A stretch of DNA of 64,000 nt, taken from Escherichia coli (GTDB lineage Bacteria; Pseudomonadota; Gammaproteobacteria; Enterobacterales; Enterobacteriaceae). The notes under the pieces were generated by a model, which saw only the letters and a list, made by a program, of their open reading frames with translations, was not told the origin of the DNA and searched no databases. The translations under genes were made by a program, and so were the position numbers. Position 1 is the stretch's first letter; every line of letters begins with the position of its first letter. Positions 58,251-59,600 of the stretch are shown here, in pieces. The stretch lies in the NCBI RefSeq assembly GCF_003334405.1, contig NZ_QOWM01000001.1. The stretch is one strand, 5' to 3'.

Positions 58251-59600
58251 CTACTCTAAAAACTTGTATCAGGACTATCACTTATTTAAGTGATATTGGT
58301 TGTCTGGAGATTCAGGGGGCCAGTCTATAAACTTTTTACAAAAGGATGAATGCAGAAGGTTACTCTAATGGCCAGAGTGATGACAATGATGGTCAGACGT
58401 TGACCTGCAGAAACTGCATTTTAATTGGTCTATAAAGTCTGCAAGAGGAATCAGGGTCAGATCAGTGAGTCTTATCGCGGCCCGAAGCTATGACTGAAAG
58501 AAGGCTGGATACAGAATTGCAACAATTTGGCAATGTCAGAACACAGAAGCTTTGCAAGCAGGTGAAAGGTTATGTCTAGCAAAAGGAGTATATCAGAATA
58601 CATCTACTGATGTACAAAACACAACAATAGCTTCATGATATATAAATACGTGATGACGAGTGGTACTCCGCATGGTTATTTAACTTCTCAGCACCACTAA
58701 TGATCCTGAGCAACTTCGTATTTGGGCCATTGCCATGGAGTAGAAAGCTGTGTCTGAGAATGCAGAATTTGAGAAAAGAATTCGCTTTCTTGGAGAGCTT
58801 CTGAAAATGGCACGCTAACAACGTTTTGTTAAAAAATGTGAATCACTTGCCGGGGCTGCATTTTCTATTCGAGGAGAATGTTGACGTAGATATTACAGAA
58901 ATCTCAGCGCATCAGGATAAACTGCTACCTTAGGTCAACCACCAAAAGAAAATACAATACGTCCAGTTTGTATGCCTTTAATAACACATCTTCTAAATGT
59001 TGAAGAATTATCCCGCCTGCTGAAGAACGTTGCTCTGAGTGTGATAAACCTTTTTATTCTTGATGATGTCAGCGAGAAGATGGAATATATCCCCGACTGG
59101 GTCGTGGTTACCCGGTTAAACATCTGGTGGCGCTAATAAATCTGGCAAGTCACATTCTGTTGAATGCTGTGACAGTGCCTTACCGAGAGAGCGAAATTGT
59201 GGTGTTCTAGTGCATAGTCGCCACCATTCCGGATAATTCTATTGCGTTGTTTTACAAGTTCTTTTACAGCGCAGATCTGTCGCTGACGTTGAATCAATAG
59301 CCTGGATTTCAGAACACAATGCCCGTTTGCTGGTTGGTCCGGCAGTAGCATTAATTCATTATCTGAATGAAATGTGTCAATCCACAGAAACCGCTGTCAA
59401 TGACGCATTTTGTCGGACGTTAACACGAGAAAGTCTGGCTATTCCGTAATGCCATCTTATTTCGTAATGGATTGAGAATGCTGGATTTTTAATTATATTA
59501 CGCGCAGTATTAATCGCGTAAATGTTTTGCGGTCAGCAACGGTGGGGGATCCATTGTTCTGTTCAATGAATACCATCATACATTTGAATCAGGAGTCGGT

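Follow-up and report, generated by a model that had tools for sequence, protein, structure and literature searches.

The 1350 bp directly upstream of cobU in Escherichia coli, positions 58251-59600 of a contiguous stretch of 64,000 nucleotides that we analysed as a whole (the window), most probably constitute the right-hand edge of a hypervariable island lying between tmaR with its adjoining pduV remnant and cobU; we put the probability of this reading, with the full history and mechanism proposed for it, at about 0.9. The seemingly empty 1.3 kb in front of cobU is explained by four insertion sequence (IS) relics, a stub of a cbi gene and a documented promoter, and most E. coli have lost from cobUST the B12 riboswitch still carried upstream in pdu-positive strains. 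In the window, the island now spans from the pduV remnant (50022-50204) to position 59305. The features of the segment and of its immediate left flank, in window coordinates, are as follows.

58116-58327, minus strand: truncated left end (IRL and start of orfA) of an IS2-like element of the IS3 family, from blastn to K-12 IS2F
58328-58556, plus strand: ISEc11-like IS1111-type element (IS110 family), relic of its 3' non-coding, seekRNA-coding region, from nucleotide homology
58557-58638, plus strand: 3'-terminal relic of an IS66-family tnpB, from about codon 100 to the stop, from blastn and tblastn
58611-58639, plus strand: predicted promoter-like site TGTACA-17-CATGAT at the tnpB-tnpC junction of the relic
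58672-59115, plus strand: relic of an IS66-family TnpC, codons 1-151 with five in-frame stops, from tblastn
59109-59297, plus strand: internal fragment of an IS4-family transposase (aa 166-228 of 445) with one in-frame stop, from tblastn
59305-59449, plus strand: cbiG-like stub, the last ~48 codons of a 145-codon open reading frame, from homology to locus L005 of a pdu-positive E. coli
59472-59499, plus strand: sigma-70 promoter of cobUST, -35 TTGAGA at 59472-59477, 16 nt spacing, -10 TATATT at 59494-59499
59500-59600, plus strand: cobU leader, Shine-Dalgarno AGGAG at 59591-59595, with the cobU ATG at 59601

The PGAP annotation of the same DNA reads, from left to right, an IS66 pseudogene, a 54-aa hypothetical protein, an 'IS4 family transposase' pseudogene and a 'cobalamin biosynthesis protein' pseudogene, followed by cobU, cobS, cobT and ldtA.

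The segment has a GC content of 41%, compared with ~50% in cobUST, and its open reading frames (ORFs) with a start codon are of 62, 62 and 72 aa, together with two of 64 and 54 aa. Across all six frames the longest stop-free run is 87 codons, versus a mean of 93 +/- 20 codons for the longest run in 500 dinucleotide shuffles, and the six-frame stops number 145 versus the 149.9 +/- 7.7 expected from 500 such shuffles; a cobU/cobS segment of equal length holds open frames of 181 and 260 codons. The stop density of 58251-59600 is that of non-coding DNA, with no excess beyond chance. An earlier sequence-only reading of this DNA had found just short ORFs (62-72 aa) in place of a real gene, in agreement with the longest open run of 87 codons; it had also called the segment stop-rich, which is right in so far as the stops have a non-coding density, but wrong as a claim of excess, the stops being no more numerous than in the shuffles. 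Its suggestion of eroded IS or prophage remains is borne out by the IS2-like, IS1111-type, IS66-family and IS4-family pieces that span 58251-59297, and their K-12 counterparts are annotated as pseudogenes. The left neighbour, in contrast, had been misnamed as an IS66 remnant: 58116-58327 is the IS2-like end, and IS66 transposase homology stops at ~58075-58084. Profile searches contributed little to these assignments. NCBIfam applied to the six frames of the segment returned nothing except a weak IS4 match, Pfam gave no match on the frame of the tnpC relic (stops written as X), and PHROGs applied to the six frames of the K-12-extended left part yielded nothing credible (best E = 0.002 over 24 residues). 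Scans with hidden Markov models are insensitive to frames as broken as these, and the assignments required tblastn and blastn comparisons with intact elements.

Homology to pdu-positive E. coli (L005) starts exactly at position 59305 and continues rightward, with 98% identity in the promoter region and 99% in cobUST. The arrangement in pdu-positive strains is pduA-X, pduF-pocR, cobalamin riboswitch, truncated cbiG, cobUST; they keep pocR, a riboswitch-bearing cob leader and the whole 145-codon cbiG-like ORF, whereas the window has IS relics where these strains have pocR, the leader and the full cbiG-like ORF. The 145-codon ORF of L005 matches residues 1-119 of Salmonella CbiG (44%, E = 2e-23; Klebsiella CbiG matches too) and positions 1-126 of the NCBIfam profile NF004463 (E = 1e-20, 73.8 bits). 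A full-length CbiG would have ~351 aa and pass the NF004463 cut-off of 546 bits, and the window keeps ~48 codons of the truncated ORF, labelled by PGAP as 'cobalamin biosynthesis protein, missing N-terminus'. By these alignments 59305-59449, which the sequence-only reading had not noticed as a stub, is a remnant of a lost cbi (cobalamin synthesis) cluster. Assignment of the stub to the end of cbiP, as the Salmonella gene order might suggest, was rejected; no CbiP match was obtained, and the L005 ORF matches the N-terminus of CbiG.

At the other side of the island, a 60-aa remnant of the PduV/EutP family lies on the minus strand at 50022-50204, beside tmaR (49592-49921). As the distal end of the lost pdu operon, it pairs with the cbiG remnant, the two being scars of one and the same cluster. 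The cob operon of Salmonella enterica (cbiA-P, cobUST) resembles that of E. coli in having a CobU N-terminus with 91% identity at the protein level and the same flanking ldtA, and differs in that its cbiP overlaps cobU and leaves no intergenic space for a separate promoter region. Relative to Salmonella, 17 cbi genes are gone from E. coli, and a segment of 150 bp carries the cobUST promoter; these 150 bp between the stub and cobU gave no match to the Salmonella cbi genes. In the pdu-positive strain 09A19CPO009 (L005 5338-6172), pocR, the riboswitch leader and an ORF for the CbiG N-domain stand directly before cobU, and cbiA-F and cbiH-P are missing.

The promoter of cobUST is located just downstream of the stub. 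A consensus scan found TTGAGA-16-TATATT with 10 of 12 consensus matches, so that both hexamers, a spacing within 16-18 nt and the reported position coincide at 59472-59499; a genomic SELEX study (PMC3946193) gives identical hexamers with identical spacing for the constitutive RpoD promoter of cobUST. That the segment holds the cobUST promoter region, as the sequence-only reading had stated, is thereby confirmed by the same published string. Transcription of cobUST probably starts near 59506. The promoter lies inside the last 128-187 bp that are kept upstream of cobU even with the largest deletions, and the final ~130 bp, comprising promoter and leader, are the only working part of 58251-59600, while the relics at 58328-59449 appear, from their decay, to be inert and to be decaying neutrally.

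No cobalamin riboswitch is present. Rfam searches of 57500-60200 at E <= 10 returned only chance matches to eukaryotic snoRNAs and lncRNAs at 14-17 bits, and a search of the whole window at the gathering score returned nothing in the region. For the cobalamin riboswitch family RF00174 (gathering score 31.5 bits) in particular, there was no match in 57500-60200 even at E <= 10, nor in the whole window. As a positive control, RF00174 scored 109.4 bits in L005, 790-960 bp upstream of cobU, where the cob leader is 83% identical to that of Salmonella. The riboswitch of pdu-positive E. coli falls to the left of the breakpoint at 59305, and the failure of the sequence-only reading to recognise one upstream of cobU thus reflects its absence from the window. 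With the cob leader deleted, cobUST would here be read from a constitutive-type promoter without a B12 riboswitch.

Lawrence and Roth reportedly described, in 1995, an E. coli cob operon with several promoters and induction by cobinamide, and a single constitutive promoter does not explain either report. We considered the possibility, which we regard as unlikely, that the relics are partly active and that internal promoters such as 58611-58639 read through into cobUST and raise its expression, which would make them the 'several promoters' of that account. Relics and cobU lie on the same strand, and one plus-strand terminator-like hairpin was found, a weak one at 58406-58418, upstream of the site at 58611-58639. 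Exactly the hexamers and spacing of that site, TGTACA-17-CATGAT, are listed as an RpoD holoenzyme site for yoeG in the genomic SELEX data (PMC3946193), and such binding in vitro may mean some transcription from the relics. SELEX, however, reports binding in vitro and not transcription, and the five promoter-like sites present in 57500-59800 equal the shuffle expectation of 4.4 +/- 2.1. Moreover, IS5H of K-12 sits between the yoeG site and cobU, and many genomes without the relics still keep cobUST. Considerably less probable is the broader proposal that either the relic promoter at 58611-58639 or an unrecognised element in the ~95 nt leader took over the regulation of cobUST, including induction by cobinamide, once the cob leader and its riboswitch had gone, and a variant in which the decayed seekRNA region survives as a transcribed small RNA is less likely again than this takeover.

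We give very little credence to a divergent cobalamin- or cobinamide-sensing leader, unseen by Rfam, that would control cobUST from 59450-59600. The reported cobinamide induction speaks for such a sensor, there being no mechanism evident in the sequence, but the leader is only ~95 nt long, its fold (59505-59615) is no better than that of shuffles (z = -0.51), and its 98% identity to pdu-positive strains, versus 99% for cobUST, equals the conservation of the neighbouring genes; the tool that finds no RF00174 match here at E <= 10 gives 109 bits on a true riboswitch.

Turning to the relics, the leftmost that belongs wholly to the segment, 58328-58556, was identified by a sensitive search of E. 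coli genomes: strain M19 (L011 3955-4231) has DNA with 74-75% nucleotide identity to it immediately after an intact IS110-family transposase gene. The relic aligns across the entire non-coding region of ten ISEc11/ISEc66-type elements; its plasmid relatives are annotated as belonging to the ISEc11 and ISEc66 families. Searches of 58328-58556 against Rfam, Pfam, NCBIfam, PHROGs and plasmid DNA gave no match. The C-terminus of the same transposase type (aa 285-337, 49% identity) survives as K-12 yoeH, and the non-coding DNA adjoining yoeH is the counterpart of 58328-58556. No homology to the IS1111-type transposase and no element ends (subterminal inverted repeats) were found in the window, and membership in this group is indicated by homology to the non-coding region, with the seekRNA structure not retained.

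The long 3' non-coding region of IS1111-type elements encodes a seekRNA required for transposition (PMC11187229), raising the question whether 58328-58556 is still a functional structured RNA, whether an orphan seekRNA or bridge-type guide RNA or a domesticated small RNA. Rfam 15 returned no family matches even on intact ISEc11/ISEc66-type elements, which renders its negative result on 58328-58556 uninformative, and retention of structure was instead judged by counting pairs over ~290 alignment positions. The consensus fold of ten intact elements has 61 pairs; 95% of the cells are paired, 13 pairs show compensatory changes, and none of 500 shuffles reached as good a score. Threaded on this fold, 58328-58556 keeps 40 of the 61 pairs, compared with 51-61 in intact copies; the closing helix has lost its 3' strand and the element its last ~30 nt, and the minimum free energy has z = +0.99 versus shuffles, where an intact copy has z = -1.71. 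Full-length homology to regions that yield a seekRNA and the occurrence of 58328-58556 in 3624 of the 5426 complete E. coli genomes, with >=99% identity in most, would favour function, but 21 of the consensus pairs are broken, roughly as neutral decay predicts at ~25% divergence, no partner transposase exists within the window, and the high identity among E. coli is not above the species-wide level (99% for cobUST). A functional RNA is accordingly most improbable, and 58328-58556 is a dead copy of a seekRNA region. It is also the sole homologue of an RNA gene in the segment, where neither an intact conserved gene nor an intact structured RNA, either of which would have contradicted the sequence-only reading, was found. 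K-12 yoeH and its adjoining DNA become readable as the tail of an ISEc11-like element with a dead seekRNA region, an illustration of how an RNA gene decays. As a separate observation, the 3' non-coding regions of ISEc11/ISEc66-type elements (L011 3979-4262, L012 1440-1730 and eight other loci) have in common a fold with strong covariation, the variable loop segments of which are presumably guide sequences.

IS1111-type homology ends at 58556/7, the exact start of homology to IS66. From 58557 onward the DNA is 71% identical to plasmid IS66-family elements, starting at the equivalent of position 3001 in L003/L004; residues 107-124 of TnpB are matched at 58576-58629, and residues 1-151 of TnpC, its N-terminal part with leucine zipper and zinc finger, are matched in one frame with 47% identity (E = 1e-24). 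Homology to both TnpB and TnpC identifies a second IS66-family relic, older than the remnant left of the segment; its tnpC part is the K-12 pseudogene yoeG (b4640), which maps to 58672-59204 in the window. The relic is far from complete: tnpA is absent, tnpB lacks everything before about codon 100, tnpC ends at codon 151, and no terminal inverted repeats or target-site duplication were found, both relic ends (58557 and ~59115) abutting other relics. A search with small words for tnpB homology left of 58557 found none. Continuation of TnpC through 59115-59300 was considered and rejected in favour of an IS4 match with E = 3e-24.

A Shigella dysenteriae plasmid offers a parallel for the abutting pair: its IS66-like tnpB is interrupted near codon 55 by an intact ISEc11. 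ISEc11 within IS66 (ISSfl3 type) on Shigella and enteroinvasive E. coli plasmids shows the order and orientation of the window, namely IS110-family transposase (lost in the window), 3' non-coding region, remainder of tnpB and tnpC. Unlike the window relics, both plasmid elements are intact; the IS1111-type piece of the window has lost its transposase and the final ~30 nt and meets tnpB near codon 100, and no intact element found exceeds ~71% identity to the IS66 relic. Based on the same-orientation ISEc11 in an IS66-like tnpB on the Shigella plasmid, the best reading of the relic pair is a nested insertion of an ISEc11-like element into an IS66-family tnpB, which may have been followed by loss of ~165 bp at the junction. 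The junction at codon ~100, as opposed to codon ~55 on the plasmid, counts against this nested history, which requires the extra deletion of ~165 bp.

PGAP's 54-aa 'hypothetical protein' at 58972-59136 (WP_001128468.1) is an in-frame piece of the tnpC relic. That this or another of the short ORFs encodes a real small protein is scarcely credible, the annotation of WP_001128468.1 as a CDS in RefSeq genomes notwithstanding, given that the ORF shows in-frame homology to residues ~100-151 of IS66-family TnpC, has flanking stops in the same decayed frame, lies within a frame that K-12 curators call in its entirety the pseudogene yoeG, and belongs to a set of ORFs with lengths equal to those of shuffled sequence. 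The RefSeq 'hypothetical protein' is a pseudogene fragment.

The next relic, 59109-59297, comprises 63 codons with 73% identity to the transposase at L010 1509-2846 (E = 3e-24, tblastn), and this homology to an IS4-family DDE transposase identifies its family. The NCBIfam profile NF033592 also matches, at E = 5e-4; with just 63 codons left, its score falls far short of the 115-bit cut-off. Neither a full-length ORF nor terminal inverted repeats were found for this fragment, which has an in-frame stop and is flanked by other relics.

Only 77 nt (58251-58327) of the IS2-like piece are inside the segment. Compared with K-12 IS2F by blastn, 58154-58327 corresponds to IS2 positions 175-1 at 83% identity, with the first 55 nt identical, and 58116-58144 to IS2 positions 246-218 at 90% identity; tblastn matched residues 18-52 of InsC within 58116-58327. 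Homology to K-12, and to most strains, starts at the outer terminus of the IS2-like piece (58326/7), and this terminus, 58327, is the point at which the strain departs from K-12. Of 5426 genomes, at most 701 carry the IS2-like junction, as judged by a probe spanning it; elsewhere an intact gene for a TonB-dependent receptor (yoeA) lies ~400 bp to the left.

Taken together, the homologies and breakpoints are consistent with the following history, the order of which is our reconstruction. An ancestral pdu-pocR-cob(cbi) cluster would have been deleted, and mobile elements would have piled up at the site, with an IS66-family element presumably arriving first upstream of the cob remnant and an ISEc11-like IS1111-type element then entering its tnpB in the orientation seen on Shigella plasmids. 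An IS4-family element would also have been present. Deletions would subsequently have reduced the array to the relic of the seekRNA region, the tail of tnpB followed by codons 1-151 of tnpC, a 63-codon piece of the IS4 transposase and, from the cbiG-like ORF, its final ~48 codons; an IS2-like element would finally have replaced everything left of 58327 in this strain. In the resulting arrangement, the sigma-70 promoter is predicted to start cobUST near 59506, with a plain leader of ~95 nt that carries the ribosome-binding site of cobU.

Among 5426 complete E. coli genomes, parts of 58251-59600 occur in 5424, >=80% of the segment in 2828, and nearly the whole array at >=99% identity in about half. 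The stub and promoter region are present in 5398 genomes; in others, the pduV remnant is joined 187 bp before cobU, or 128-140 bp are left. In K-12 MG1655 the same DNA is the right end of the cryptic prophage CP4-44, with the pseudogenes yoeH, yoeG and yeeH. The two strains agree at 99.6-99.8% identity over 58326-59210 and 59207-60000, yoeG (b4640) corresponding to the tnpC relic and yeeH (b4639) to the right part of the IS4 fragment, with the same cobUST promoter hexamers upstream of cobU (b1993). K-12 differs in having IS5H inserted in the CTAG at 59207-59210 and in keeping yoeH (b4641) and yoeA on the left, where the window has the IS2-like end left of 58327. With K-12 pseudogenes and a published promoter, the segment is largely annotated already and holds nothing surprising to a specialist, and its relevance beyond annotation hygiene is small.

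Several further observations concern the island and its edges. Two copies of ~160 bp of an IS66-family 3' end, at 50276-50437 and 57655-57817, are 88% identical and inverted relative to each other; one stands beside the pduV remnant, the other is the 'IS66 remnant' left of 58251, and the pair brackets the island that replaces the pdu-cob cluster. The segment is 100% identical to that of E. coli NZ_CP062895.1 (L021), the best match of the window, with which it is nevertheless not collinear, ~7.5 kb (L021 6228-13711) being missing at ~51133-51137, between the pduV remnant and zinc-ribbon/ISL3 genes; the missing DNA holds CP4-44-like genes (cbtA/cbeA, yeeS/T/W, a patatin-like gene and others). 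In NZ_CP149967.1, 128 bp are kept upstream of cobU, with the breakpoint at 59473, put at the first base of the -35 hexamer, and the promoter may be altered in strains keeping 128 bp. The ~80 bp next to the breakpoint in the window (59305-59385) show ~86% identity to pdu-positive strains, with ~11 substitutions and 9 bp deleted, compared with 98-99% identity to the right of 59385, a local excess of change beside the breakpoint. In O157:H7 (L023 4052-6364), an intact ISEc8 of the IS66 family lies inside the cbiG stub at the equivalent of window position ~59336, indicating that IS elements are still hitting the site. Lastly, the K-12 region between yoeA and yoeH, DNA that is missing from the window, carries upstream of yoeA a strong Fur-box-like sequence, TAATGATAATTATTTTCATT, and a perfect hairpin, GGACCGCACTCTT...AAGAGTGCGGTCC.
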